The notes beneath the pieces were generated by a model. The model was given only the letters and a program-made list of their open reading frames with translations. It did not search any database and was not told the origin of the DNA. Shown here piece after piece: positions 590-64,000 of a DNA stretch of 64,000 nt. The stretch spans positions 2,254,356-2,318,355 of the forward strand of contig OZ251218.1 in the NCBI GenBank assembly GCA_965240365.1, written 5' to 3'. The position numbers and the translations under genes were made by a program. Source of the stretch: Gammaproteobacteria bacterium. Its GTDB lineage: Bacteria > Pseudomonadota > Gammaproteobacteria > Eutrophobiales > Eutrophobiaceae. How positions within the stretch are numbered: the stretch's first letter is position 1; each line of letters starts with the position of its first letter.

Positions 590-1075
590 TTATGGACAGG
601 ATGTCCTGTATGCGGCGTGAGGGCAGGATGCCCGTAGCCGCCCGGCGAAGGCCGGAATCCAGTAGTTTATGTCATACATTCCCGCCCAGGCGGGAATGAC
701 AATCAGGCAGGACTGGCGCTTATTTCACATCCCGGCCCGCCCTCCTGGATTCCGGCCTTCGCCGGAATGACGACGAGGTGTTGTTTTGGCTTTCCGTTAT
801 CCTGTCTGCCTGCTGCGGGCAGGGCTTTAGCAGTAATGCAGGGTCACCTCATCTAAAATAAGGCTCAGGTATCCTGGCCACGGTATCGTTAGTATCGCTC
901 ATAATGCGCCTATCGCCCCCGTCGTCATTCCAGCGAAAGCTGGAATCCAGTGGTTTATGCCATACATTCCCGCCCGGGCGGGCGGGAATGACAATTAGAC
1001 AGAACTGGCGCTCATTTCATATCCCGCCCCGCCCTCCTGGATTCCGGCCTTCGCCGGGCGGCTTGTCAGGGAGCA
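590..1075. repeat. Mosaic array of short palindromic repeats (ATTCCNGC-loop-GCNGGAAT stems such as cattcccgcccaggcgggaatg and cgtcattccggcgaaggccggaatccag; CTGCCTGCTGCGGGCAGG palindromes; ccgtcatttatggacaggatgtcctgta module)
   Basis: Same modules recur at more than 15 intergenic sites in this window. Confidence 0.7.
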
Positions 1076-1082
1076 GAGGCAG

Positions 1083-1799
1083 TCAGGAGAGTTTGATGAG
1101 CACTGCCAAAGCGCTGACACCGATAGACACTATCACGCCGAGCTTGATGGTCAGCTTGTGTTCCATTTCCCTAATGGTGGCCTCTTGTTCTTTGATGGCC
1201 AGTTCCAGCGCCTTGATAGCGGTCCCCTGTTCTTTAATGTTGGCCTCTTGTTCCTTGATGGCCAGTTCCAGCGCCTTGATGGCGGTCCCCTGTTCTTTAA
1301 TGTTGGCCTCTTGTTCCTTGATGGCAAGCTCCAGCGCCTTGATGGCGGTCCCCTGTTGCTCAAGGTCGCGTTTCAGACCAGCTTCGATAGCCTTGATGGC
1401 GGTCCTCTGTTGCTCAAGGTCGCGTTTCAGACCAGCTTCGATAGTCTTGATGGCGGTCCCCTGTTGCTCAAGGTCGCGTTTCAGACCAGCTTCGATAGCC
1501 TTGATGTTGGTCTCTTGTTCCTTGAGTTTTTGTTCCAGGGCGACCCGGAGCTTCTCAATGTCGTGTTTTAGCTCGGTCTTTAGTTTCTCGATATCGTACT
1601 TGTGGGCAATATCCAGTTCCTTGAGCTTTTGTTCCAGGATGGCGTCCTGCTGCTTGAGGTCTTGTTTAGTGGCCAGACGTTCCTGGATCAGGCGGGACTG
1701 TTCTTCGGCCAGGATTTCGGCCTGGGGTTCGGGCATGCCGGCGCTGGTCAGGCGTTTGACGAAGCCGTGAGTGTCGAATGTGACGGTTTCTGTTTCCAT
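1083..1799 (-). CDS. DUF1640-like coiled-coil protein with C-terminal transmembrane anchor and expanded internal tandem repeats
   Basis: N-terminal METETVTFDTHGFVKRLTSAGMPEPQAEIL resembles DUF1640 (FDT...AG...QAEA) start; heptad-rich KELD/IKAIEAGLKRDLEQQGT repeats; C-terminal hydrophobic IVSIGVSALAVLIKLS. ORF track start at 1835 is a TTG; ATG at 1797-1799 preferred. Plus-strand ORFs 904-1770 and 1158-1571 are shadows of the repeats. Confidence 0.6.
   Translation of the reverse strand: METETVTFDTHGFVKRLTSAGMPEPQAEILAEEQSRLIQERLATKQDLKQQDAILEQKLKELDIAHKYDIEKLKTELKHDIEKLRVALEQKLKEQETNIKAIEAGLKRDLEQQGTAIKTIEAGLKRDLEQQRTAIKAIEAGLKRDLEQQGTAIKALELAIKEQEANIKEQGTAIKALELAIKEQEANIKEQGTAIKALELAIKEQEATIREMEHKLTIKLGVIVSIGVSALAVLIKLS
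1176..1505. repeat. Coding tandem repeats: 3 copies of a 63-bp unit (1176-1365) then 3 copies of a 54-bp unit (1344-1505)
   Basis: Direct inspection: ggcctcttgttccttgatggccagttccagcgccttgatggcggtcccctgttctttaatgtt x3; gcggtcccctgttgctcaaggtcgcgtttcagaccagcttcgatagccttgatg x3. Confidence 0.9.
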
Positions 1800-1854
1800 G
1801 AGAGGCAGGTTACTGGTTGGGGCAACTGTTTGCAAGTTACCGTGACATTGCCCT

Positions 1855-2040
1855 GGTTAACCCGCAGATTCCGCCCCCGCCGTCATTTATGGACAGGATG
1901 TCCTGTAGGCGAGCTTGCGCCGGAATGACGGCGGGGTTGGTGGGTGTATCCTGCCAGGCAGGCGGGAGGGGTGTTCGTTTTATACTCCGGCCCCGCCCGC
2001 CCGGTTTGGGCAGGCAGGCGGGGTTTTGGATGGACGGCGG
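1855..2040. repeat. Palindromic repeat cluster (catttatggacaggatgtcctgta, gccggaatgacggcgg, caggcaggcgg modules)
   Basis: Shared modules with the 590-1075 and 45050-45240 clusters. Confidence 0.55.
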
Positions 2041-2045
2041 TTTGC

Positions 2046-4550
2046 TTACCACTCAAGCTCTACGCCCAACTTAACCAGGCGCGGCGGACCTTGCATTAAT
2101 CTTGGATTGCTTGCTCTTGTTACCCAGTAGGCTTCGTCGGTCAGATTGTCCACATTTAGCCGCAGGGTTAGCCCCTTACCGGCAATTTTTGTCTCGTAGC
2201 GCGCGCCGATATCAAATAGCGTGATATCGTCGAGATACCACCGTTTGTCCGGATCGATCGGGATTTTACCTCGGTAACGGGCGCTTGCCGTCAACGTCAG
2301 TGGCAAACCCGGCGCGCGGTACTCGCCATAAAGGCTGAACTGCTCGCGGACCTTCCCAGGTATGCTTTTGCCATCAAGCGTACCGCCCGTGGTTTTCTGG
2401 TTGGTGGCGTCCAGCCACATGGCGCTGGCCGTCAGAAGCCAATACCGGCCTAAGCGGAATTTGCCGTTGAGTTCCAGGCCCTGGTAGCGGGCTTCGCCGT
2501 CCTGGGTGAAGACATTAGCCGGGGTGGTATAGGTGAGCGCGCGTTCCGTTCGGAACAGCGCGGCGGTGGCTGACCAGTCATCAGCTTCGGCCTTTGCTCC
2601 GAACTCGTACTGCTTGCTGACAGACGGCGGGAAGATTTGACCGGCGTTGGCCGCTGTTCTTGGCGCCGTTGCCCCTTGTTCCAGGGCTTCTATATAACTT
2701 CCGTATAAGGATAAGTTATCCAGTGGGCGAAAGACGGCGGCAAAGGTGGGGGTAAGTGCGCTCTTGTCGTAATCCGAGAGCTTGAGGTCCAGATTACCGT
2801 ACCGCAAGCCGAGGATGATGTCCCAGTCCTCACCGATTCTTAGTGTATCTGACAGGAATAGCTCCCGCCGACGATCGGCATACCATTCGCTTAACGCGAA
2901 AGTCTGGTCTCTGTTAAAATAAAAAGAAGTGCCAAATGGATTATTAATCTCAACCGGATTGGACAGGTTACCCGCATTGGGTATATCAATGAATGTCTTT
3001 TTGGAGAAAGGTTTTTCGTTAAAAGGTTTTTTGTCAATCTGATCATCATAAGTGTCAATTCTGCGTATTTCAGTATATGAAGCGCCTACTGCCAACTCAT
3101 GCGATACGGGCCCGGTTGTGAAGATGCCGTTGATCATTGCCTGCGATTGCGAACTTTCACTTAGAAGTGATTGCGTATGTCCTAATCGCAACGAGTAGTT
3201 GCCGCCAGAATCAGAAAAGATCAATGGTAAACCACGCTCCTCATCATTCTTTAACTGACGATGCGCCAGGGTCAGTTTCCAGTCCGCGGCAAAGTTCCAG
3301 GAAAGGTCTGTGCCGTAGGTTTCATGAATCGTACTCTGACCTGACCAGGAGGGGGCAAGTCTTCGACTACCGTCAATGGGTGCGGGTGGTTTATTGATAT
3401 TCCTAAATCCAATAGCGCCGTCAGAGTTTGGAACCAAATAGAGATAACCACCTCTGCGTATATGCTTTCCCAACAGCGCGTCGAATCGCCATAGCAAATC
3501 AGGCGTGATTTGCCAGTCCAGGGCGATGGAACCTGAATTACGGCGTGACTCGCCGTCGTTGATATAGGTGTCTCCCGATTCGTGGATCACATTGACGCGG
3601 TAACCAAAACGATCATCGGCGCCCAGTCGCCCACCCACATCCCCATGCGCCAGCGCCAGGCCGCTGTCCATCACCTGTGTGCTTAGGCTCCGAAAAGGTT
3701 GGTTTGTGGGCCGTTTCATTACGTAGTTGACAATGCCGCCTGGCGCCCCAAACCCGTACAGGAAGCCACTGGCGCCCTTGAGAATGTCAATCCGTTCCAG
3801 GTGCTCCAGAGGTAGATCTCTCGAAAACACAAATGCACTCAGGCCGTCAATTTTTTGTCCAGTAGCAAGGTCTGGTCGTAGACCTCGTATGTTCAGCGAC
3901 CAATTTGCACCCACAAGATTATCCGGCATCAGGCTGATTGAGGCATCTCCCTTGGTGATGTCAGCTAATGAGCGCGCCTGTTTGTTTTTTATCAAGTCAC
4001 TCGAATAGACTTCAATGCTGTAAGGTGTGTCTTTGAGTAGTTTGTTACCGAGCACGCCGACATTGGCGTCTTCCACGCGATAGGCTTTTTCGGCATCGCC
4101 GGACAACCACGGCTCTGCCGATTGCGCCTCCCCTTCCACCGTCAGCGGCGCCATTAGTATGGGTTCTTCCTCCTCCGGCGCGGATTCGAGCACGGCGGTA
4201 TTGGCGGCCGTGAGCCGGTAGGCGATGCCCGTGCCGGCCAGCAGTTGGCGGAGCGCCTCGGTATGTTGCAGTGCGCCGCTGACGCCGGGCGATTGCACGC
4301 CCTCAAGCCGGCTGGTGGCATAGGCAAAGGAAAGCCCGGTTTGCTCCGAGAAACGGTCCAGCGCCGAGGCCAGCGGCTGGGGCGGGATGGAGAAGGTCTG
4401 CACCGCGCCGGTCCCGGCTCTGGCAGGGGCGGCGGGTTCGGCCGCTGTGGCGCCGAGTGTCAGCAAGCCGAGGCCGATGCCTGCAATGAGGGTGCGTAGC
4501 GCCGTCAGCGTCGGTTGGCCGGCGGTTGCCGGTGGGTTGTGCGTTGTCAT
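2046..4550 (-). CDS. TonB-dependent outer-membrane receptor/transducer (FecA-like) with N-terminal STN signalling domain
   Basis: Signal peptide, STN-like FSIPPQPLASALDRFSEQTGLSFAY, plug and beta-barrel motifs, C-terminal ...KLGVELEW; start moved to ATG at 4548-4550 with AGGAG 10 nt upstream; downstream of fecI/fecR on the same strand. Confidence 0.85.
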   Translation of the reverse strand: MTTHNPPATAGQPTLTALRTLIAGIGLGLLTLGATAAEPAAPARAGTGAVQTFSIPPQPLASALDRFSEQTGLSFAYATSRLEGVQSPGVSGALQHTEALRQLLAGTGIAYRLTAANTAVLESAPEEEEPILMAPLTVEGEAQSAEPWLSGDAEKAYRVEDANVGVLGNKLLKDTPYSIEVYSSDLIKNKQARSLADITKGDASISLMPDNLVGANWSLNIRGLRPDLATGQKIDGLSAFVFSRDLPLEHLERIDILKGASGFLYGFGAPGGIVNYVMKRPTNQPFRSLSTQVMDSGLALAHGDVGGRLGADDRFGYRVNVIHESGDTYINDGESRRNSGSIALDWQITPDLLWRFDALLGKHIRRGGYLYLVPNSDGAIGFRNINKPPAPIDGSRRLAPSWSGQSTIHETYGTDLSWNFAADWKLTLAHRQLKNDEERGLPLIFSDSGGNYSLRLGHTQSLLSESSQSQAMINGIFTTGPVSHELAVGASYTEIRRIDTYDDQIDKKPFNEKPFSKKTFIDIPNAGNLSNPVEINNPFGTSFYFNRDQTFALSEWYADRRRELFLSDTLRIGEDWDIILGLRYGNLDLKLSDYDKSALTPTFAAVFRPLDNLSLYGSYIEALEQGATAPRTAANAGQIFPPSVSKQYEFGAKAEADDWSATAALFRTERALTYTTPANVFTQDGEARYQGLELNGKFRLGRYWLLTASAMWLDATNQKTTGGTLDGKSIPGKVREQFSLYGEYRAPGLPLTLTASARYRGKIPIDPDKRWYLDDITLFDIGARYETKIAGKGLTLRLNVDNLTDEAYWVTRASNPRLMQGPPRLVKLGVELEW

Positions 4551-4739: not shown

Positions 4740-5200
4740 TCATCCCGGCAAGCCGGGATGTATTTTATAAACCACTGGATTCCAGCTTTCGCTGGAATGA
4801 CGATGGGGGCAATAGGCGCATTATGAGCGATACTAAACGATACCGTGGCCAGGATACCTGACGCCTTATTTTAGATAAGGTGACCCTGCATTCCTGCTAA
4901 AGCCCTGCCTGCTATAGGCAGACAGGATGACGGAAAGCCAAAACAACACCTCGTTGTCATTCCGGCGAAGGCCGGAATCCAGGAGGACGGGCCGGGATGT
5001 GAAATGAGCGCCAGTCCTGCCTGATTGTCATTCCCGCCTGAGCGGGAATGTATTACATAAACCACTGGATTCCAGCTTTCGCTGGAATGACGGGTAGTAA
5101 GCGGACTGCTGTTTGCCGTTTCTCTGACTTTGTTATCATGCCGGTCTACCCGGTGAAGGCAGGCAGGACGCCGCATGCCGGACATCCTGTGCATAAATGA
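4740..5200. repeat. About 460-bp palindromic-repeat array between fecR and the TonB-dependent transducer
   Basis: gtcattccagcgaaagctggaatccagtggtttat, cattcccgctcaggcgggaatg, cattccggcgaaggccggaatccaggag modules, several in inverted orientation. Confidence 0.7.
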
Positions 5201-6291: not shown

Positions 6292-6368
6292 GGTGAGGGT
6301 CTATAGCCTTTGGGCAAAGCGCGCGGGCAGCCGCGCGCCGGCTATATTGGCCCTAAAGACCAGCGGTA

Positions 6369-7239: not shown

Positions 7240-7480
7240 CGTCATTCCAGCGAAAGCTGGAATCCACGCCTGCCGGAGGCAGGCCTGCCTGCTGCAGGCA
7301 GGTAGCGGGGTGGCAGCTAATTCAGCGGGGTCTGTTGGAATGAGGTATTCAGATGGTCATTCCCGCTTATGCGGGAATGTATTGTATCAACCACTGGATT
7401 CCAGCTTTCGCTGGAATGACGATGGGGTGTTGTTCCGGCTTTACATCATTCCGGCCTGCCTGCCGCAGACAGGCTCATGC
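7240..7480. repeat. Palindromic repeat cluster
   Basis: cgtcattccagcgaaagctggaatcc, ctgcctgctgcaggcagg, cattcccgcttatgcgggaatg modules. Confidence 0.6.
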
Positions 7481-7546: not shown

Positions 7547-8212
7547 TTATGCCTGCCCCTCTCCGTCATTCTGGCGGGTCCGAGACGGGCAGGCCCCGGA
7601 CTGTCGTTTCCGCAGAAAATATTGTCTGGCCACCCAGACGCAGAACAGCGGCGCGCCCGCGCCCGCGAGCAGCAGGAAGTAGTAGTCGAGTTGCAGCAAG
7701 GTCACGATCGGGGTCAGGTATAAAATATCCTCGGCTTCCAGGAACAGCTTTTCTACATCGGCATCCCCGGCGTTTGCCGATTTTTTTTCCAGTTCGGACA
7801 GCCCGTGTATGAAGATAAAGATAGCGGCCACCGCCAGACCGGAAATGCCGCCCAGGAGGCCGGCATGGCCGCCGGCGCCGCCCTGCATCAGGCCGATGCC
7901 CAGGCCGACAAACAGGGAGATATTCACCAGCGCGTCCGAGTACAGGTCAAAATAATGCCCGAATGCGCTGCTGTTGCCGGTCAGGCGGGCCAGTTCGCCA
8001 TCGGTGTGATCGAGGAAATTGGAGATCACAAAAAGCAGCGCGCCGATATTGGCGTGCAGATAGCCGCCCACGCAAAAAAAATAGAACGCGAGCAACCCGC
8101 AGGCGAGACGCAGGGCGGTCAGATGGTTAGGCGTGATGAAGGTGTTTTTTAAGGGATAGACCAGGCGGCAGGCCAGCCGCGCGTCCCAGGGTTTGTCCTC
8201 AGCCCCGGCCAT
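7547..8212 (-). CDS. CDP-alcohol phosphatidyltransferase family membrane protein
   Basis: Exact D-x2-DG-x2-AR-x8-G-x3-D-x3-D motif (DHTDGELARLTGNSSAFGHYFDLYSD); multiple TM helices; start overlaps the stop of the upstream hpnN-like gene by 14 bp. Confidence 0.75.
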   Translation of the reverse strand: MAGAEDKPWDARLACRLVYPLKNTFITPNHLTALRLACGLLAFYFFCVGGYLHANIGALLFVISNFLDHTDGELARLTGNSSAFGHYFDLYSDALVNISLFVGLGIGLMQGGAGGHAGLLGGISGLAVAAIFIFIHGLSELEKKSANAGDADVEKLFLEAEDILYLTPIVTLLQLDYYFLLLAGAGAPLFCVWVARQYFLRKRQSGACPSRTRQNDGEGQA

Positions 8213-10793
8213 GATTCCCCCCGGACGGATTCTGCCAGATTAAAAAGGCGGGCAGTACCAGCAGCGTGGCGATCATCATCGAAATCAGGCCGGTTGCGAG
8301 CAGCAGGCCCATACTGGCCGTGCCGAGGTGCGCCGAAAAGGCCAGATTGCCGATGCTGAATACGGTCGTCAGCGAACTGATGATCACGCCGCGCGTGGCG
8401 CTGGTGCTAAAGATATTGCGCTTGTGGCCCTGTTCCTGCCGAAAACGATCCGCGATATGGATCGCGCTATCGACGCCGATGCCGAGCAGCAACGGCAGGC
8501 CGATGATATTGGCGAAATTGAGCGGGATCTTAAACAGCAGGATAAGGCCGGCGGTAAAGAGCCCGCCGGTCAGGACGGTCAGCAGTATCAACACGGCGTC
8601 CCGCTTGACCCGGACCAGCAACAGCAGCAATAGCGTGATCGCGATCAAGGCGTAGCTGAACGCGGAGGTAAACGCCGCGATCACGGCCTCGCCGGCCTCG
8701 ACCCGGATAACGGGCAGGCCGGTCACGGCCGCGTCTTTTGCCTGTAGCTGCCGGACAAAACGCGCGATGGCCGGATTATCATTCAGGTCTTCCTTTGGTT
8801 GCAGTTGCAGTTTATAAACCCCGTCGCTGAGCCAGCGATCACGCGCATCGTCCGGCAGGCTGTCCAGAGTAACCGGCCCGGCCGCGAGCGCGTCATTCAG
8901 GCCGTCGATGCGCCCGTTCAGGTTGCCGAGCATCCGTTGTTCAATGTCCGGCAGCCGCTCAGGGGCGAGCAGGGCGCGGTTTAGATTGGCATACAGCCTG
9001 TCAAGCCGCGCGCCGCGGTTTTCCTGGCTGACAGTTTCAAGCCGCGCCAGGAATTGCCGGAGCGCCGCGGTCCGCGTTTCGTTGTTAATCCCGGGGCCTG
9101 CCGCCATCTCCAGCGGCCCCATAAACAGGTTCATGTCATCAATAATAAATAATTTTTCCTGCTGGTTTTGGGGGATCAGATCGGGCAGCCAGATCACATC
9201 GTCAACCAGTTCCAGCGCCGCAAATTCCTCTTTAGCCCGTTTGGCCTCGGGTATTGATTTTTTTAACAGCAGGCCGTGCCAGGGCGAGTTGTCAGGCTCG
9301 CTTAAAAGGTCTCTATAGGTTTGCACCGATTCATTTTCGGGGTCTTGTAGATTGAGCGGATTAAAATCAAAATTCAGCCGGTGTATCTGCGAAAGCGCCG
9401 CCGCGCCAAGCAGGGCGGCGACCAGCAGTATTTGTTTTGGATAGCGGTACGGTATGCGGCTCAGGCGGTCTGCCAGGGCGGCGATGCGCTGGTTGGCGGG
9501 GCGGGGTCGGCAGGGTTTCAGGCTTAACAGCGCCGGCAGCAACAGGAAGGTATAGAGCACGCTGATGAACATGCCGCTGCCGGCTATCCAGCCCAGTTCG
9601 GCCACGCCCTCATAGTCTGTCGGGATAAACGAGTAAAAGCCGATCGCCGTGGTCAGCGCGCATAAGGCCAGGGAGCGAAAGAGAGTGAGGCCGGCGGTCT
9701 TTAATGCGCCCTCCGGTCTTGCGCCGGATAAGATCTGTTCCCGGTAGCGCAGCGTCAGGTGAATGGCAAAATCAATGCCGAGGCCGATATACAATACCGC
9801 AAAGGCCACCGAGATCAGGTTCAGTTCGCCGACCGTGAGCGTGGCAAAGGCGGTGGTCGCAATCAGCCCCATTAATAATGTTATGAGACAGGCGCCGACC
9901 AGCCACCATGATCCCAGTCCGAGCAGCAACAGGCCGCTGACCAGTATGATCGAGGCGGCGATCGCCACGGTATTGGCCTTTGCCACACTTTGCAGTTCTT
10001 CATTGGCCAGCGCCACGCTGCCGGTCAGGCGGATATTCGTATTGCCGCGGTTCAGATCGAGCGCGGCGCCGGCCGCGCGTATCTGGCGGATAGCCTCGGC
10101 CCCCGGCAGGAAGCCGGCCCCCGGTTCCACTTCCAACAGGATGAATTCACGGTAAACCGCCTTTTGTGCGCTGTTGACAGCCATCAACCTTTGCCAGGAA
10201 ACGGGATAGCGCTCATCTTCCAGGCTGCGGTTCAACTCGGCCAGCAGGGCGTCAATGTCAATATCCTCGCCGGCCTCAATGGCCTGCAAGGCGTTGTCCA
10301 GCATGGCGAACAGGCCGCGCAGGTTATTATCCTGCAACAGCGCGCCGAGGAAGGGCTGAATCTGCGCGAGTTGATCTGCCAGGCTTTGCAGTTCTGTTTC
10401 CTCAAGAAACAAAAAGGCGGATTCACGGAAAAAAGGCAGCGCCGGCGGGTAATAAACCGATTTGATCCACTCCGGTTCGGAAGCCAGCGCCCGCGTCAGG
10501 CGCAGGGCGCTGTCGGCGGCCTCGTCCGGCGTGGCGGCTTCGACCACGACCAGGATGGTATTGACAAACTGCGGAAATAATCTTTCATATTCGATATCCA
10601 GTTTGCGCCAGTCCAGTTCCTCGGACAGCATATCGGCCGTATCGGCGCTCATGCCGAGGTTGTCTTTGATATAGAAGACAGCGCCGAGCGTCAGCGCGAT
10701 GACGCCGAGAATAATGGCAAGACGGCGCCGTTCCACGAACGTTATCCAGCCCGTAATGAATCGCTCCGGCCATGTCGGGGATGATGGGCGCAT
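8199..10793 (-). CDS. hpnN: MMPL/RND-superfamily exporter, HpnN-like (hopanoid transporter)
   Basis: 864 aa, 12 TM in two 6-TM bundles with large periplasmic loops; last gene of the sqs-shc-hpnG operon; gene symbol from context and size. Confidence 0.7.
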   Translation of the reverse strand: MRPSSPTWPERFITGWITFVERRRLAIILGVIALTLGAVFYIKDNLGMSADTADMLSEELDWRKLDIEYERLFPQFVNTILVVVEAATPDEAADSALRLTRALASEPEWIKSVYYPPALPFFRESAFLFLEETELQSLADQLAQIQPFLGALLQDNNLRGLFAMLDNALQAIEAGEDIDIDALLAELNRSLEDERYPVSWQRLMAVNSAQKAVYREFILLEVEPGAGFLPGAEAIRQIRAAGAALDLNRGNTNIRLTGSVALANEELQSVAKANTVAIAASIILVSGLLLLGLGSWWLVGACLITLLMGLIATTAFATLTVGELNLISVAFAVLYIGLGIDFAIHLTLRYREQILSGARPEGALKTAGLTLFRSLALCALTTAIGFYSFIPTDYEGVAELGWIAGSGMFISVLYTFLLLPALLSLKPCRPRPANQRIAALADRLSRIPYRYPKQILLVAALLGAAALSQIHRLNFDFNPLNLQDPENESVQTYRDLLSEPDNSPWHGLLLKKSIPEAKRAKEEFAALELVDDVIWLPDLIPQNQQEKLFIIDDMNLFMGPLEMAAGPGINNETRTAALRQFLARLETVSQENRGARLDRLYANLNRALLAPERLPDIEQRMLGNLNGRIDGLNDALAAGPVTLDSLPDDARDRWLSDGVYKLQLQPKEDLNDNPAIARFVRQLQAKDAAVTGLPVIRVEAGEAVIAAFTSAFSYALIAITLLLLLLVRVKRDAVLILLTVLTGGLFTAGLILLFKIPLNFANIIGLPLLLGIGVDSAIHIADRFRQEQGHKRNIFSTSATRGVIISSLTTVFSIGNLAFSAHLGTASMGLLLATGLISMMIATLLVLPAFLIWQNPSGGNHGRG

Positions 10794-10834
10794 TTGTTTA
10801 TTTGATGGCTTTATGGTGTTTCATTTGTGTCTGG

Positions 10835-10975
10835 CCGTTATCCTGGCCACGGTATCGTTAGTATTGTTCATAATATGCCTATCGCCCCCGTTGTCATTCC
10901 AGCGAAGGCTGGAATCCAGTGGTTTATGTCATACATTCCCGCCCAGGCGGGAATGACAATTCCCCCGCTATGTTA
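10835..10975. repeat. Palindromic repeat cluster
   Basis: ttgtcattccagcgaaggctggaatccagtggtttatgtcatacattcccgcccaggcgggaatgacaat. Confidence 0.6.
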
Positions 10976-10979
10976 GTAA

Positions 10980-11339
10980 TTAGATGAGGTGACCCTGGCC
11001 CTCATAAATCTGCCTCTTTGTAAACAGCGCTTTGGCCACAAAGTCAATATGTCTTTTTAACGGCGGATAGCTGATGTGTTCATACAGGGTGATATCGACC
11101 TTGTGCGGAATCATGCTTTCCAGAAAGCAGGTATAGAGGCGATCGCCGTCCCGTTCGCTGATGTTGCCGTAGAGCACCAGATCAATATCGGAGACGCGCG
11201 TAAATGTCCCGGTCGCCCGGGAGCCAAACAGCCCCACTCGTTCTATGGCGGCGCAGTTGTCTCTTAAGATATCCCTTATGCTTTGCAGATATTGCTTTGC
11301 AGATATTGCGGTTTTATGCCGTGCTTCATTCCGCTTCAT
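10980..11339 (-). CDS. Minimal nucleotidyltransferase (MNT/MntA-type antitoxin of HEPN/MNT module)
   Basis: GS-x9-13-D-x-D signature (LFGSRATGTFTRVSDIDLVL); 119 aa; overlaps upstream HEPN gene by 14 bp. Confidence 0.75.
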   Translation of the reverse strand: MKRNEARHKTAISAKQYLQSIRDILRDNCAAIERVGLFGSRATGTFTRVSDIDLVLYGNISERDGDRLYTCFLESMIPHKVDITLYEHISYPPLKRHIDFVAKALFTKRQIYEGQGHLI

Positions 11340-11757
11340 CCATGATCCTTACGGCCAGTGTTTCATACAGGGCGCCAAAACACCCATCAATATAAAGGCG
11401 GCTGATTCGATCTATAACCTGTTCAAATTTTTTGAAATCATAGGTATGACTCATTTTGTTGCGGTCATCCAGGGCCTCCAGCCAGATATCGGGCCGGTCG
11501 ATCAATCTGGCGTTGCCCGCTTCCCTGATCACGGTGCTTGGAAACACCTCCGGAAATACGAAATGCTCATATTCCATATAATCCTTTATGGTCTTCCAGG
11601 CCAGTTCCATGCAAAATTCAAAACGCTGGATCATGCCCTCTTTGGCGATTTGTTCCAGTTCTTCCTGCCGTTGCCGGTCGCATATTTCCCGCAACAATAC
11701 ATAAGCGCGCCTGTAATTATCAAAGCGATATTGCCACCTCGGTTTTTGCTTCATCAT
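11326..11757 (-). CDS. HEPN-domain protein, HI0074/HepT-like nucleotidyltransferase substrate-binding protein (toxin of HEPN/MNT pair)
   Basis: RFEFCMELAWKTIKDYM and C-terminal region match HI0074-family HEPN; 143 aa; paired with the MNT gene. Confidence 0.7.
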   Translation of the reverse strand: MMKQKPRWQYRFDNYRRAYVLLREICDRQRQEELEQIAKEGMIQRFEFCMELAWKTIKDYMEYEHFVFPEVFPSTVIREAGNARLIDRPDIWLEALDDRNKMSHTYDFKKFEQVIDRISRLYIDGCFGALYETLAVRIMDEAE

Positions 11758-11774: not shown

Positions 11775-12551
11775 TTAATGCCTTTGGTCCGTATCATCAT
11801 AAAGAAAATGCCGTGTTTTTAAATCCGCCGCAATGATTTTTAGCGCGTGTATGGCCTTGCGGTAGCGGTTTGCCAGGGTGATCAGGGCGGCTATCTGGCC
11901 CGGTTGTCTTAGCACTGAAACGAGAAAGCCGGGCAGGCGCGGCCGGCCCAGGTTGTCGGTGTGTTCGGTGACCGCGGCGGGGAGGGTGTCATCAAGCGTG
12001 TCCGCGATCGCGCGCACGACCAGCAGATCGAGTTTGTGTCGCCGCGCCTCGGCCGCGAGCGCGGCGCTTTCCATGTCAACCGCGCTGGCCCCCGTGGTTT
12101 CTGCCAGCGCGCGTTTTTGCGCCGGGCCGCGGCAGATTTGATCGACCGAGGCCAGCGGCGCGGCGCGGGCATTGTGCCCCCGGCGGCGCAGCATTTGCAG
12201 CACCCGGTCGCGCCAGTGATGGCGCGGGTCATAGCTGATCTCCGCGCCGGCAATACGGCTGGCGACCAGCAGATCGCCCGGCCCGAGGCCGCGCCTGATG
12301 GCACCGGCCACGCCCCAACTGACCAGCGCCCCGATGTTAAGCGCGCGGAGCTGGCCCGCGCTCTTGAGCGCCGCCCGCTGACCCGCGCCGCTCAGACATA
12401 AAAACAGGTTTTTTTCAATTTCTACAGGGCGGGCAATGGACAGTTTTCCGGCATGGAGGCAGCTTGCCTCGGCAGGGAGCGCGGCAATGACGCCGAGCCT
12501 GGGGTTCAAGCCTGTTCTGCGAGCCGGTTGCGGTAGCGGGCCAGCGCCCAT
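11775..12551 (-). CDS. hpnG: Purine-nucleoside phosphorylase / MTA-SAH nucleosidase family protein, HpnG-like (adenosylhopane nucleosidase)
   Basis: PNP_UDP_1-fold motifs (GVIAALPAEA, SGAG, ASAVDMESAALA); directly downstream of shc. Start uncertain: ATG 12551 overlaps shc by 46 bp, or TTG at 12509 in a TTGA overlap with the shc stop. Confidence 0.6.
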   Translation of the reverse strand: MGAGPLPQPARRTGLNPRLGVIAALPAEASCLHAGKLSIARPVEIEKNLFLCLSGAGQRAALKSAGQLRALNIGALVSWGVAGAIRRGLGPGDLLVASRIAGAEISYDPRHHWRDRVLQMLRRRGHNARAAPLASVDQICRGPAQKRALAETTGASAVDMESAALAAEARRHKLDLLVVRAIADTLDDTLPAAVTEHTDNLGRPRLPGFLVSVLRQPGQIAALITLANRYRKAIHALKIIAADLKTRHFLYDDTDQRH

Positions 12552-14525: not shown

Positions 14526-15635
14526 TCATTGAGATAGTTTCCCCGTGGCGCCCTGACTACTGGCAAGCGCCGAATTTTCACTTAGTGTCTCACGAATGGC
14601 GGCCATAGGCAAATGTCTGCCCAGAAATCGGAACAGATAATGCAGCATCCGATCCCGGCCGGCCAGCAGGCCAGTTAAAACCACGATCAGCCTCACGCTG
14701 CGGCGGCTGATCTTGACCTGCCGGCCCCGGCTGAAATTCGGATTTTGCCGAATCTTGTCCAATGTCATTACCGCCATGCCCGCGGCCCACAAACAAAAGC
14801 GGCGCAGGCCCTTTTCCTCGGGCGGGATCATCAGGCTATAACGCAGGGCGTTGTCGATATGCCGGTGAGCGATGCCCAGTAATTCTGTCAGGGCCGCCTC
14901 AAAGCCGGGCGCGTTTTGGCCGGGGATTTTTTTGGTAATATCGACCCGGTGTTTATTAAAGACATCCCGCGGCAGCCAGCAGGCGCCGCGTTCGTGATCT
15001 TCCCAAATATCCTTGAGGATATTGGTCATCTGCAAGCCCTGCCCAAAGGAAACGCCAAGTTGCATCAAGGTCGCCCGGTGTTGGTCAAGCGTCGGCGAAT
15101 AGTCACAGAAGAGTTCGGTCAACATCTCGCCCACGACCCCCGCGACGTGATAACAATAGCGCCCCAGATCCTCCAGATCGGCCACGCCGTCCAGCGTCTC
15201 GGCCTCCTGATAGTGCGCCATGCCGGCCGCCATGATCGAGACGCAGCGCGCCAGCGCGGCCCGCTGGCGCGGATTAAAGCCGCGGGTAATGCGGATCACC
15301 GCCGCGATATTGGCGATCAGGTCGTGCTCGGCCTTGCTGGCCGCGGCCGACAGCCGGGGGAAAAGCGCCGCCGAGAAACGGTCCGGATCCAGTTCGCCCT
15401 CGACCACCTTGACGAAGCGTTCGGCATAGTCACGCTTGGCTTCGGCAGACAGGGTCTTGTCATCTTCTATGGTGTCGGCAATACGGCACAGCAGATAGGC
15501 ATTTCCCACGACCCGGCAGAGCGGCGCCGGCAGTTCGGGGATCGTCAGGGCAAAGGTCCGCGACACATGCTGCAAAATCTCATCCTGATAGGCATCGTCA
15601 TCAAGCCGGGTCTGAAAGGCGGTCCTGGGTTTCAT
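14526..15635 (-). CDS. Squalene/phytoene synthase family enzyme (squalene synthase, HpnC/HpnD/Sqs type)
   Basis: Trans-IPPS head-to-head motifs (RIADTIEDD, YCYHVAGVVG); adjacent to shc. ORF-track start at 15746 extends into a repeat element; ATG at 15635 gives about 369 aa. Confidence 0.8.
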   Translation of the reverse strand: MKPRTAFQTRLDDDAYQDEILQHVSRTFALTIPELPAPLCRVVGNAYLLCRIADTIEDDKTLSAEAKRDYAERFVKVVEGELDPDRFSAALFPRLSAAASKAEHDLIANIAAVIRITRGFNPRQRAALARCVSIMAAGMAHYQEAETLDGVADLEDLGRYCYHVAGVVGEMLTELFCDYSPTLDQHRATLMQLGVSFGQGLQMTNILKDIWEDHERGACWLPRDVFNKHRVDITKKIPGQNAPGFEAALTELLGIAHRHIDNALRYSLMIPPEEKGLRRFCLWAAGMAVMTLDKIRQNPNFSRGRQVKISRRSVRLIVVLTGLLAGRDRMLHYLFRFLGRHLPMAAIRETLSENSALASSQGATGKLSQ

Positions 15636-15744
15636 CGTGATGTTGTCTTTGTTTTTATCATGGCGATTAAATGGTTTGCCCGAGGCAGTTAAGCAAAAGC
15701 CGGGCAACGCAGGCATTGTCTTGATGTGTCCGCCCCCCGTGGTC

Positions 15745-15960
15745 ATTCCCGCTTGAGCGTTAATGTATCATAATAAACCATTGGATTCCGACTGTTGTCC
15801 GGATTCAATACTTATTGAGACAAATTAGACAGGCAGGTTAAACAGATTATGTGTGGTTTTGGTTGGTCCTGTTGCTGGCGGGCGGGAATGATGTGAAGCC
15901 AAAACAACACCCCATCGTCATTCCGGCTTTCGCCGTAATGACGGCACAGCGTATCCATCC
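15745..15960. repeat. Palindromic repeat cluster
   Basis: gtcattcccgcttgagcgttaatg, ggcgggaatgatgtgaagccaaaacaacaccccatcgtcattccggctttcgccgtaatgacgg. Confidence 0.55.
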
Positions 15961-45258: not shown

Positions 45259-47516
<2,258 letters not shown>

Positions 47517-47639: not shown

Positions 47640-48010
47640 TTGCGGCAGGTAGCAGACAGGCGAAAACCGGAATCCAGGAGGGCGATGCCGTAGTGTAAAA
47701 CAGATTTCGGTTCTATCTGCCTGTAACAAGCCGTTCAGAATCAGGCATTTGTTGTCATTCCCGCTTGGCGGGAATGTATAATGAAAACCACTGGATTCCG
47801 GCTTTCGCCGGAATGACGGCGGGGGTTATTCTCGCTCCCGTCATTTATGTAGGCGCGCGCTCTGGAATAACCGATTCTTAACTTCATACACTATCGTCAT
47901 TCCGGCGAAGGCCGGAATCCAGGAGGGCGGGCCGTGGTATGAAACAGATTCGGGTTCTGTCTGCCTGTATCAAACCGTTCAGAATAAGGCATTTCCGGAA
48001 TGACGACGGG
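47640..48010. repeat. Palindromic repeat cluster (about 370 bp)
   Basis: cgaaaaccggaatccaggagggcg, gtcattcccgcttggcgggaatg, cactggattccggctttcgccggaatgacggcggg, tcgtcattccggcgaaggccggaatccaggagggcggg; internal 2x duplication. Confidence 0.65.
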
Positions 48011-50869: not shown

Positions 50870-51490
50870 TAATTCCAGCCCCGTCGTCATTCCAGCGAAA
50901 GCTGGAATCCAGGAGGGTAGTCCGGGGTACTATAGTGGAAGCTCTGAATAAATCCATCCTGGATTTCTCAGAGCACGCAAGGTGAAAATGCGATTTTCAC
51001 CTTGCTTCAAAATCAATGATTTGCATCATTGATTTTGGCGGTACGTCCCTGTACCGCAGGAAACTCTGATTCAATCAGAGTTTCCTAGTGAATTGCAGCT
51101 TCCACCTGCCTGCGCCAGACCGGTCTGAATGGTGTGTTTGGTTGTCATTCCCGCAAGCGGGAATGTATAACATAAACCACTGGATTCCGGCTTTCGCCGG
51201 AATGACGGAGGGGGCGATAGCAGGTTTTTCGTCATTCTGGTCGGCCCCGTTGGTTACTCTTGACGCATTCCCGGGAGCAGCACTTTACCGTCATTCCGGC
51301 GAAGGCCGGAATCCAGGAGAGCGGGGGTGGAGTGTTGGATGAATTCCGGCTTTTGCCTGCTTGCACCGGACTTACCGGAATGGTGTGTTTGGTTGTCATT
51401 CCCGCTGGGCCTGTCACAGGCAGGAAGGTGAAAATCGCATTTTCATCTGGCGCGCCCTGAAAATCCAGGATGGACTTATTCAGGGCTTCT
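50870..51490. repeat. Repeat cluster containing a MITE-B copy plus dRS3-like palindromes and a partial MITE-B end (51420-51490)
   Basis: gtcattccagcgaaagctggaatccaggag; gtcattcccgcaagcgggaatg; cgtcattccggcgaaggccggaatccaggag; aggtgaaaatcgcattttcat...tccaggatggacttattcagggcttc. Confidence 0.65.
50937..51086. mobile_element. MITE family B copy (150 bp, near-identical to 60066-60214)
   Basis: ggaagctctgaataaatccatcctggatttctcagagcacgcaaggtgaaaatgcgattttcaccttgcttcaaaatcaatgatttgcatcattgattttggcggtacgtccctgtaccgcaggaaactctgattcaatcagagtttcc; TAGT on both flanks (putative target-site duplication). Confidence 0.7.
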
Positions 51491-62556: not shown

Positions 62557-64000
62557 AATGTGGAAATTAGCGCTGTCTTTGCTGTTTTTTTTGCCGGTCG
62601 CGGCCCTGTTGCCTGATCTGCACACGTCAAACCCGCTCGCCTCGCGCGAGGATGGCCGGGGATCCCCTGTATTTCGAATAGTCTCGCTGCTGCCGCTACA
62701 GGCCGTTTATGCGCTGGAGGATTTCGATGATGACTCCGCGGACGGCGATGCGGATGGCGATGACGGCTTTGACAGTGACTTTGATGATGACGATGCCACG
62801 GATGATTTCGCGGGGAATGATGATAGCAGGGACGATAGTGACGGATTCTCGGCAGGACGTGATAACAGCGGGGATGATAGCGACCGCTTCACTGCGGAGC
62901 GTGATGACAGCGGGGATGATAGCAACCGCTTCACGACAGGGCGTGACGACAGTCGGGATGATAGTGACCGCTTACCAACGGGGCGCGATGACAGCGGGGA
63001 CGATAGTAACCGCTTCACGGCAGGGCGTGATGATAGTGAGGACGATGCAGATTCACGGCGTGACGATGATGATGACTTCGCATTTGATGACGCCAACGCT
63101 GACGATGGTGACAGGGATGACTTCGAACGTGATGATGACGGGGGGATTGGCGATGAGACGGATGACGGTTTTGAGACCGCCTTCGGTTTTGATGGCGACG
63201 ATAACGATGATGGCAATGGCGATGAGGGTATCGAGGTGGACAATCCAAGCGATGCCGGGGATGATGGCGCCGATGACGATGCCCTTGCGCGCGGCGGCGA
63301 AGATGGTGACGACCGGGAACAGTTAGACGGCAACGCCGCCGCCCCGGAAAGTGATACTTTCATCAGCCTGGAAAATGACACTTTTATAATCCCTGATGAT
63401 AATCCCTTGCGTCTGGATAATATCGTACAGGGTCCGGACGGCGATCCCCATATCAATGGCGAAATGCTGGTCCTGGTTGACGCCACGGAATACAATGAAA
63501 TCATCAGCAAACTCCAGTACCGGATTATTGCCGAGCAGAGGATCAAGACACTCGGCCAGGTTTTGGTCAGATTACAGGTGCCCACGCGCGATTTTCAGAC
63601 TGCCGCCGAACTCATCAGCGCTAACGCGCCCGGCGCGAGCATAGACTACAACCACACTTACGATTTATCCAACGCCGGCGCCGCCCTGGAAACAGGGGCG
63701 GAAATCCGGCACGACAGCCGTATTGCGCTGGACGGCGCGAGGGTAAAAATAGGCATGATTGACTCGGGCGTGGACAGATTTCACCCGAGCCTGAAACAGG
63801 CGGATCTGGTTATTCGTGATTTTTCGCCGAAAAATACCAGAACGTCTTTTAGCCACGGCACCGCCATTGCCTCGCTTATCGTCGGCAATGAAGAGAGCAG
63901 GTTCACGGGCTTCATCCCCACGGCCACCTTATATGCGGCATCGGTCTTCGGCCTTTCCGAGAAGGGCCATATTCGCTCCACCACCGAAGACCTGGTCCGG
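62557..64000 (+). CDS. Secreted subtilisin-like serine protease (S8 family) with an acidic Asp-rich tandem-repeat region after the signal peptide; partial, continues past the window end
   Basis: Read in the third plus-strand frame (absent from the ORF track because no stop in window). Signal peptide MWKLALSLLFFLPVAALL; 14-aa repeats RDDSGDDSNRFTAG; catalytic Asp box VKIGMIDSGVD and His box SHGTAIASLIVG. Confidence 0.75.
62830..63050. repeat. Coding tandem repeat, about 5 copies of a 42-bp unit (cgtgatgacagcggggatgatagcaaccgcttcacgacaggg)
   Basis: Direct inspection; encodes the RDDSGDDS(N/D)RFT(A/T)G repeats. Confidence 0.85.

Follow-up and report, generated by a model that had tools for sequence, protein, structure and literature searches.

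We analysed a 64,000-bp stretch of a gammaproteobacterial chromosome (contig OZ251218.1, positions 2,254,356 to 2,318,355 of the forward strand; referred to as the window in the rest of the text, with coordinates counted from its first base), in which two small adjacent genes, coding for a HEPN protein and a minimal nucleotidyltransferase (MNT), lie between the hopanoid genes hpnG and hpnN. We are fairly confident that this pair is an HI0074/HI0073-type HEPN/MNT toxin-antitoxin cassette resembling a system of Legionella pneumophila, that it was inserted once between hpnG and hpnN and has been inherited vertically since, that it has no specific role in hopanoid metabolism, and that the start of its antitoxin gene has been frameshifted in the window.

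A HEPN/MNT pair lies within a tight row of hopanoid genes

Seven open reading frames (ORFs), namely sqs, shc, hpnG, HEPN, MNT, hpnN and a gene for a CDP-alcohol phosphatidyltransferase, form a single tight row on the minus strand:

14526..15746, minus strand: sqs, squalene/phytoene synthase family (SQS_PSY), first gene of the row; PF00494, 190.7 bits
12506..14491, minus strand: shc, squalene-hopene cyclase (SHC); TIGR01507, 807 bits against a cut-off of 431
11775..12551, minus strand: HpnG-like hopanoid-associated phosphorylase; PF01048, 70 bits; TIGR03468, 162.9 bits, below its cut-off of 187.1
11326..11757, minus strand: HEPN toxin gene of the HI0074/NTase_sub_bind type, 143-amino-acid (aa) ORF; PF08780 and TIGR01987
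10980..11339, minus strand: MNT antitoxin ORF, 119 aa, starting inside the end of HEPN
8199..10793, minus strand: hpnN, HpnN hopanoid RND transporter; TIGR03480, 858 bits against a cut-off of 752
7547..8212, minus strand: CDP-alcohol phosphatidyltransferase (CDP-OH_P_transf); PF01066, 51.3 bits

This row, with its short gaps and overlaps, had been proposed in a preliminary description of the sequence and was confirmed by the ORF coordinates, the Pfam and NCBIfam matches and the spacing. Upstream of the pair, sqs and shc are 34 bp apart, shc and hpnG overlap by 46 bp, and 17 bp separate hpnG from HEPN. Downstream, HEPN and MNT overlap by 14 bp, MNT is followed after 186 bp by hpnN, and hpnN overlaps the CDP-alcohol phosphatidyltransferase gene by 14 bp. 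The true start of HEPN is likely the second of two consecutive ATG codons (at 11754), which gives a protein of 142 aa, since this is the length found in all relatives and AGGAG lies 6 nt upstream of this codon, where it is better spaced.

HEPN and MNT resemble the type VII toxin-antitoxin pair of Legionella

The preliminary description had taken the two genes between hpnG and hpnN for a toxin-antitoxin pair with an HI0074-type HEPN, and this was upheld by the scores of hidden Markov models and by sequence and predicted-fold matches to Legionella proteins. HEPN scored above the curated cut-offs of both PF08780 (120 bits against 31.8) and TIGR01987, the HI0074 model (89.4 bits against 55.8), and MNT scored above those of PF18765 (40.7 bits) and PF01909 (38.5 bits). 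The closest characterized relative of both proteins, in sequence as well as in predicted fold, is the type VII pair lpg2920/lpg2921 of L. pneumophila (8XDJ, 8YUF, 8XEH, 8XEO): phmmer aligned HEPN with the Legionella HEPN toxin (8XDJ/8YUF) at E = 3.5e-18 and MNT with the Legionella MNT (8XEH_E/8XEO) at E = 2e-05. An AlphaFold2 model of HEPN, computed from a 60-sequence alignment (predicted local distance difference test score, pLDDT, of 94.1), has five helices in the all-alpha HEPN helical-bundle fold. Its best matches in the PDB were 8YUF/8XDJ (template modelling score, TM, of 0.86-0.94; rmsd, the root-mean-square deviation, of 1.3-1.7 Å), and 1WTY and 1JOG were also matched. The model of MNT, likewise computed from 60 sequences (pLDDT 87.4, falling below 50 for residues 1-10), superposed on 8XEO/8XEH_E with a TM of 0.73-0.89 (target-normalised 0.83-0.89) and an rmsd of 1.2-1.5 Å. 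Its elements are α1-β1-β2-α2-β3-α3-β4 plus a 5-residue helix, without a long C-terminal helix, as in the Legionella MNT.

The residues on which the Legionella system depends were located at the following positions:

11617..11628, minus strand: codons of HEPN Q44 and E47, predicted Mg2+ site and RNase centre
11440..11463, minus strand: codons of the HEPN R99-x4-H104-x-Y106 motif (RNKMSHTY, residues 99-106)
11181..11225, minus strand: MNT GS-x10-DxD motif (G39 S40 ... D51 I D53), GSRATGTFTRVSDID, residues 39-53
11094-11096, minus strand: MNT third carboxylate, D82, invariant in 60 homologues

Alignment of 60 homologues of each protein showed that R99 and N100 of HEPN are invariant and that Q44, E47, H104 and Y106 are each at least 90% conserved; in MNT, no variation was seen at G39, S40, D53 and D82, and conservation of D51 is 90% or higher. 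HEPN Q44/E47 align with Q44/E47 of the Legionella HEPN, and R99/H104/Y106 with its R98/H103/Y105. In the Legionella toxin, Q44/E47 constitute the Mg2+ site, mutation of which abolished RNase activity and toxicity, and Y105, within the R-x4-H-x-Y loop, is poly-AMPylated by MNT, whose GS-x10-DxD residues are needed for AMPylation (PMC11586414). The two pairs therefore have in common the Q44/E47 metal site, the R-x4-H-x-Y motif with its acceptor tyrosine and the GS-x10-DxD motif, and by analogy Tyr106 is the predicted AMPylation acceptor of HEPN. They differ in genomic setting, as the pair described here lies inside a hopanoid operon unlike that of Legionella, and in their junction, as the Legionella genes overlap by 8 bp whereas the overlap in the present subfamily is ATGA, that is 4 bp.

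Other characterized systems are less similar. The ranking of solved relatives by sequence places the Legionella pair first, then TTHA0048 and HI0074/HI0073, and the ranking by fold is the same. HI0074 of Haemophilus influenzae is the protein that defines TIGR01987 and PF08780, the two models whose cut-offs HEPN exceeds, and both folds of the HI0073/HI0074 pair (1NO5, 1JOG) were matched. The match to HI0074 is nevertheless more distant than that to Legionella (TM of 0.61 for HEPN, E = 6e-06 by sequence), and HI0073/HI0074 was described as a two-protein nucleotidyltransferase, not as a toxin-antitoxin system. The HepT/MntA systems of Shewanella oneidensis (SO_3166/SO_3165) and Aphanizomenon flos-aquae (PMC7641770; 5YEP, 6M6U, 7AE2) are also more distant, with a TM of 0.5-0.7. 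They share the logic of a HEPN RNase toxin silenced through (poly)AMPylation, by a GS-x10-DxD MNT, of a tyrosine beside R-x4-H. However, HepT belongs to another HEPN family (DUF86/HepT-like, not PF08780) and is only about 10-14% identical to the window HEPN, and the MNT of these systems has a long α4 helix that inserts into the toxin. In addition, the MNT gene of HepT/MntA-type systems is almost always the 5′ one (PMC3710099), whereas the toxin gene comes first here, and the toxin-first order is constant in the subfamily, plasmid copies included. PADLOC returned no match for HEPN and only weak candidate-system (PDC-S09) matches for MNT, and an exact-sequence look-up of the window HEPN found no record.

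By homology, HEPN would act as a Mg2+-dependent RNase with its Q44/E47 centre in the cleft of a dimer, and MNT as a short pol-β-type adenylyltransferase carrying GS-x10-DxD and no long C-terminal helix. If the Legionella mechanism carries over, MNT would use ATP to AMPylate Tyr106 in the R-x4-H-x-Y loop and thereby neutralise HEPN, and the RNase would be released if MNT activity were lost or ATP fell. The toxin gene being first, the antitoxin would normally be translated through stop/start coupling at ATGA.

Locus comparison indicates a single insertion in the ancestor of one clade

We compared the hopanoid locus with those of relatives from metagenome assemblies, which are labelled by L-numbers; no close relative was found among 185,579 species genomes, in which the best HpnG match was 40% identical. 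Eight independent metagenome contigs (L081, L082-L085, L088, L089 and L102) carry the pair, and in seven of the eight, that is in all those that reach a flanking gene, it occupies the hopanoid slot. The four long contigs (L081, L088, L089 and L102) have the complete order sqs-shc-hpnG-HEPN-MNT-hpnN-CDP-alcohol phosphatidyltransferase and the short ones have part of it; L085 consists only of the pair and a 27-aa fragment on the opposite strand. HpnG, where present (L081-L084, L088, L089 and L102), is 76-99% identical to that of the window, and sqs is 81-98% identical across related loci. Every sampled copy of the pair at the hopanoid site is an open frame of near-normal length, the departures being the frameshifted MNT start of the window (see below) and a 1-nt indel near the 3′ end of MNT in L102. 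The latter is a deletion with respect to the window and L088 (L102, around 6330-6342; last residues GHPSNC versus GHLI) and may be an error, as the coverage of this contig is 4x.

The sister clade L090-L095, whose SHC is 74-81% identical, has the order sqs-shc-hpnG-PhyH-hpnN and no HEPN/MNT. The gene found in the slot instead, phytanoyl-CoA dioxygenase-like, is also present in L002 and L014, the two outgroups whose SHC is most similar:

L090, 10767-11513, and L091-L095: PhyH-family gene in the hpnG-hpnN slot, sister clade
L002, 3280-4017: PhyH-family gene in the same slot
L014, 6999-7742: PhyH-family gene in the same slot

In the outgroups L001, L003, L004, L005 and L007, hpnN directly follows hpnG, and no HEPN/MNT homologue was detected within about 10 kb of hpnG in the hopanoid loci of 80 other species (tblastn, E<=1e-5). 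The CDP-alcohol phosphatidyltransferase gene holds an equal position in L081, L088, L089, L090 and L014. The preliminary description had called for a comparison of relatives' hopanoid loci and had raised the objection that the arrangement could be an assembly artefact; this objection fails, the pair having been recovered in eight independent contigs, at the same locus wherever a flank is reached, and being absent in the outgroups. Among the sister-clade contigs, the PhyH-family gene is 84-86% identical, far above HpnG, and may code for an uncharacterised hopanoid-modifying enzyme. No PhyH homologue was found in the 64 kb of the window, nor were PhyH remnants detected in the intergenic spacers of the pair-carrying loci, even at E<=10.

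The two genes of the pair have a GC content of 46.9% and 49.7% compared to 58.7-65.3% for the flanks, and a GC content at third codon positions (GC3) of 55-60% compared to 71-78% for the flanking genes. Synonymous divergence (dS) is 0.29-0.63 for the pair and 0.39-0.57 for the flanking genes, and the ratio of nonsynonymous to synonymous divergence (dN/dS) is 0.075-0.165 for HEPN, 0.20-0.27 for MNT and 0.23-0.36 for the flanks. The presence of the pair at the same site throughout the clade, its absence outside, its low GC content, its flank-like dS and its low dN/dS thus indicate, as far as sequence comparison can tell, a single horizontal insertion or replacement in the ancestor of the clade followed by vertical inheritance and co-divergence under purifying selection. 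The cassette would accordingly be a lodger of one clade of uncultured marine proteobacteria, having entered the hpnG-hpnN slot once in the ancestor of that clade.

HpnG and HpnN are 46-59% identical to those of the sister clade compared to 74-81% for SHC, which prompted us to consider a mosaic operon whose hpnG-hpnN half had been swapped by recombination. We rejected it because comparisons confined to the sister clade show the same imbalance of rates (SHC 83-88%, HpnG 46-55%, HpnN 65-66%). Within the pair-carrying clade, the corresponding identities are 84-89%, 76-77% and 81-83%; measured against SHC, HpnG and HpnN thus change far more rapidly in the sister clade.

Close homologues of the pair occur in unrelated contexts

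A HEPN 76% identical to that of the window is part of a defence island of L086 that also includes a ZorA-like gene, helicases and RelA_SpoT; the RelA_SpoT-domain gene follows the pair and overlaps the end of MNT by 23 bp (10724-10746, within L086 10001-11773). Another, 72% identical, lies in a same-strand row of aromatic catabolic genes. A third, 75% identical, is located between insertion sequence (IS) elements in L103 (6001-6611), where MNT is truncated to 60 aa; this pair is a decaying copy. More distant members are carried by a small Megaera plasmid, beside a replication gene, and by many Piscirickettsia plasmids, all in HEPN-then-MNT order with 8-bp overlaps. HEPN had no match in viral contigs, and in JGI metagenomes it matched three loci only, at about 52% identity, none of them with hopanoid genes. 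Likewise, our literature search retrieved no paper joining hopanoids or squalene-hopene cyclase with HEPN, with HI0074-type proteins or with a nucleotidyltransferase substrate-binding protein. Since close homologues reside in a defence island, in a catabolic gene row and on plasmids, nothing ties the family to hopanoids. Judged from these genomic contexts, the family is distributed like a mobile toxin-antitoxin cassette rather than a pathway enzyme, and the cassette would have no specific role in hopanoid chemistry.

The pair probably shares the transcript of the hopanoid genes

In L081, hpnG and HEPN adjoin directly (0 bp), whereas they are 17 bp apart in the window and 20 bp apart in L088. 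A promoter and terminator scan of the two junctions revealed no terminator-like site, including in the MNT-hpnN spacer, and its promoter-like matches were not above chance (8 observed compared to 5.7 expected). None of these matches was taken as evidence; the best lies partly within a strain-specific repetitive extragenic palindromic (REP) element. A -35/-10-like site at the 3′ end of hpnG was rejected as a promoter, being conserved coding sequence only. Given the 0-20 bp between hpnG and HEPN and the terminator-free space between MNT and hpnN, it is plausible that the pair is transcribed together with the hopanoid genes, and the cassette would then probably ride on the transcript of their operon.

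A 14-bp duplication frameshifts the antitoxin start in the window

The junction between the two genes differs from that of the relatives in the following features:

11279..11309, no strand assigned: 14-bp tandem duplication, on the gene strand two copies of GCAATATCTGCAAA plus GCA; Tandem Repeats Finder (TRF) period 14, 2.2 copies, 100% match
11326..11329, minus strand: ancestral ATGA junction, in which the HEPN stop codon TGA overlaps the canonical MNT ATG; kept in relatives

Two complete copies of the repeat unit occupy 11281-11308 and are followed by 1 further in-register matching base, within a TRF array of 31 bp. The length of 15 bp given in the preliminary description was incorrect, the 15-mer having counted one base twice. 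Alignment showed that neither L088 nor L102, both 98.4-98.6% identical in nucleotide sequence, has the 14-bp insertion, and that L081, L082, L083 and L085 lack it too. It must be lacking from L089 as well, the junction of which was not itself aligned, judging from its canonical 113-aa MNT, its 4-bp overlap and its MKHGIKP N-terminus. On these alignments, the duplication is private to the window sequence.

As 14 is not a multiple of 3, the duplication frameshifts MNT. The MNT of relatives starts at the ATGA overlap, has 106-113 aa and begins with M-x-H-G-I; L081, L082, L086, L088, L089 and L096 all retain the ATGA junction. In the window, the ATG at 11329 now encodes only a 17-aa peptide (MKHGIKPQYLQSNICKA, followed by a stop), and the MNT core is in frame only from the ATG at 11339, 10 nt upstream of the canonical start and preceded by AAGGA at a distance of 6 nt. 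The resulting ORF has 15 foreign N-terminal residues and has lost the N-terminal HG, which is at least 90% conserved in the 60-sequence MNT alignment; its N-terminus is shared by no protein in a database of 5.8 billion sequences. Removing one repeat copy in silico yielded an MNT of 111 aa, 2 residues different from that of L088. The 14-bp overlap of HEPN and MNT noted in the preliminary description is thus present in the window, but it is derived, resulting from the private duplication, and the family norm is the 4-bp ATGA overlap of the relatives. Since the copy is perfect and the repeat is bounded by GCA microhomology, replication slippage is its expected origin.

A recent slippage event of this kind would have uncoupled MNT from ATGA and left it reliant on independent initiation at 11339. 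The synthesis of the window antitoxin is therefore probably altered and reduced by the loss of ATGA coupling, and, the antitoxin being catalytic, such a change in supply may be tolerable. We also considered that the duplication could be an artefact that arose during sequencing or assembly, or could represent a minority variant, with an ATGA-coupled 111-aa MNT in the real genome, and regard this as rather unlikely, though it deserves to be kept in mind. The two 98.4-98.6% identical assemblies and every other relative lack the duplication, the N-terminus that it generates has no counterpart among database proteins, and the window also contains a 36-base poly-G run resembling a sequencing artefact. 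However, a perfect 14-bp tandem copy with GCA microhomology is a signature of slippage and not of base-calling error. Moreover, an ATG preceded by AAGGA at a suitable distance opens the shifted frame, as selection would require if the toxin were active, and HEPN itself is intact, with R29Q as its single substitution compared to L088. The poly-G run, located at 47414-47449, invites caution over small indels in this assembly.

Alternative explanations for the conserved position of the pair

Several observations weigh against the reading of the pair as a Legionella-like cassette that is a mere lodger in the operon. Against a cut-off of 60, MNT scores only 26.7 bits with the MntA equivalog model NF047752 and is thus related to MntA without being an equivalog member. 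The mechanism is carried over from Legionella homologues that are only 32-33% (HEPN) and 27-30% (MNT) identical. Furthermore, Legionella Q64, involved in tetramer autoinhibition, and R73, involved in MNT docking, correspond to E64 and S74 here; as neither is conserved, the oligomeric part of the Legionella model may not apply and should not be carried over. Two orders of events fit the history of the slot, loss of PhyH followed by insertion or direct replacement. Finally, the dN/dS of HEPN (0.075-0.165) is below that of every flanking hopanoid gene, and the 0-20 bp between hpnG and HEPN in L081, L088 and the window leave no room for a promoter belonging to the cassette.

These last two points would suit a domesticated module, in which the pair works within the hopanoid operon either as a stress- or ATP-sensing post-transcriptional switch on the expression of hpnN or of the lipid genes or as an addiction device against deletion. 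The fixation of the pair at one site across a clade whose HpnG is 76-99% identical, with open frames in all sampled copies, and its location in the slot of a conserved PhyH gene point in the same direction. We nevertheless find domestication improbable, given that homologues 72-76% identical occur in unrelated contexts, that the pair is present in none of the 80 other species' loci and none of the 6 sister-clade contigs (L090-L095), and that its low GC content has not drifted towards the host value. Besides, any live toxin-antitoxin module should keep its active toxin and the antidote under purifying selection. A more elaborate version, in which a promoter-less pair has become part of the operon in the former PhyH slot, AMPylation and RNase activity tie the expression of hpnN and of the lipid genes to energy or stress status or hinder loss of the operon, and the duplication retunes the antitoxin:toxin ratio, appears to us less probable still. 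Chromosomal toxin-antitoxin modules that stabilise DNA (PMC2701414) offer a general precedent, being likewise selfish two-gene modules fixed in a chromosomal cluster and retained through speciation; unlike for those modules, a stabilisation of the hopanoid genes by the present pair is purely hypothetical.

The pair could alternatively be a two-subunit biosynthetic nucleotidyltransferase, composed of a catalytic MNT and a HEPN that binds the substrate, in the manner of a split kanamycin nucleotidyltransferase, that modifies a small molecule of the hopanoid pathway. The PDB titles of HI0073/HI0074 show that its structures were first interpreted as those of a two-protein nucleotidyltransferase, and the pair is located between hpnG, coding for an enzyme of the adenosylhopane branch, and a transporter gene. 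Yet the acceptor tyrosine loop and the Q/E metal site of a proven toxin are conserved, aminoglycoside nucleotidyltransferases are only distant fold matches (TM of 0.47), members of the family are carried by plasmids, embedded in defence islands or flanked by IS elements, and co-occurrence with hopanoid genes does not extend beyond this one clade. This explanation thus seems to us very improbable, and we retain that of a toxin-antitoxin cassette without a specific role in hopanoid metabolism.

The pair is an ordinary type of element in an uncommon place. It brings no new mechanism and leaves the current understanding of such systems unchanged; what is new is that it holds a conserved place within a hopanoid operon, where it apparently took over from a PhyH gene, and that a natural frameshift affects the start of the antitoxin. 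A mobile toxin-antitoxin cassette would thus be able to lodge in a core lipid-biosynthesis operon and survive speciation (dS of about 0.3-0.6), with its toxin more constrained than its metabolic neighbours. For the annotation of hopanoid loci, this means that the two small genes should not be taken for new hpn genes, and that the PhyH-type dioxygenase gene in the same slot of related bacteria may be the more interesting hopanoid-linked candidate. As for the frameshifting duplication, it would amount to a natural experiment on the amount of antitoxin that a catalytic type VII system needs.

Repeats, a mini-ORF and other features of the window

Two further elements lie between MNT and hpnN:

10873..10960, no strand assigned: palindromic doublet of 88 bp, resembling REP elements or miniature inverted-repeat transposable elements (MITEs), with 25-nt inverted arms
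10798..10824, minus strand: mini-ORF of 8 codons that stops 4 nt short of the hpnN ATG

The repeat cluster noted in the preliminary description is real, with palindromes at 10895-10916 and 10934-10955 and inverted arms, but has no particular association with the pair. Its family, which is REP-like, has at least 15 sites across the window compared to 0 expected by chance, including copies near 677-947, 4778-5089, 7243-7418, 47898-47919, 50888-50909 and 51292-51313, and the 88-bp doublet is absent from L088 and L102. From this comparison, the doublet is a recent strain-specific insertion and no part of the cassette or of its arrival. As the copy beside MNT is missing from strains 98.4% identical, the REP-like family appears to be currently mobile. 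A CGGGGG direct repeat seemingly flanks that copy.

The mini-ORF is constant in length and position in the pair-carrying loci that reach hpnN (window, L088, L102, L081, L089 and L082), whereas the sister clade has no such ORF upstream of hpnN. It may serve as a leader or as a translational-coupling element.

The rest of the window is ordinary proteobacterial chromosome, including an amidase-mutL-miaA-hflX-hflK cluster and a FecI/FecR/TonB-receptor set. A scan of the entire window at Rfam gathering thresholds detected no RNA family. Long in-register tandem repeats occur near 1172-1506 (periods of 63 and 54 bp) and near 62818-63046 (periods of 42 and 84 bp). The neighbourhood varies from strain to strain: in the near-identical L088, positions 801-3031 do not align to the window and contain PhdYeFM antitoxin and PIN toxin genes split by an IS element (DDE_Tnp_1).

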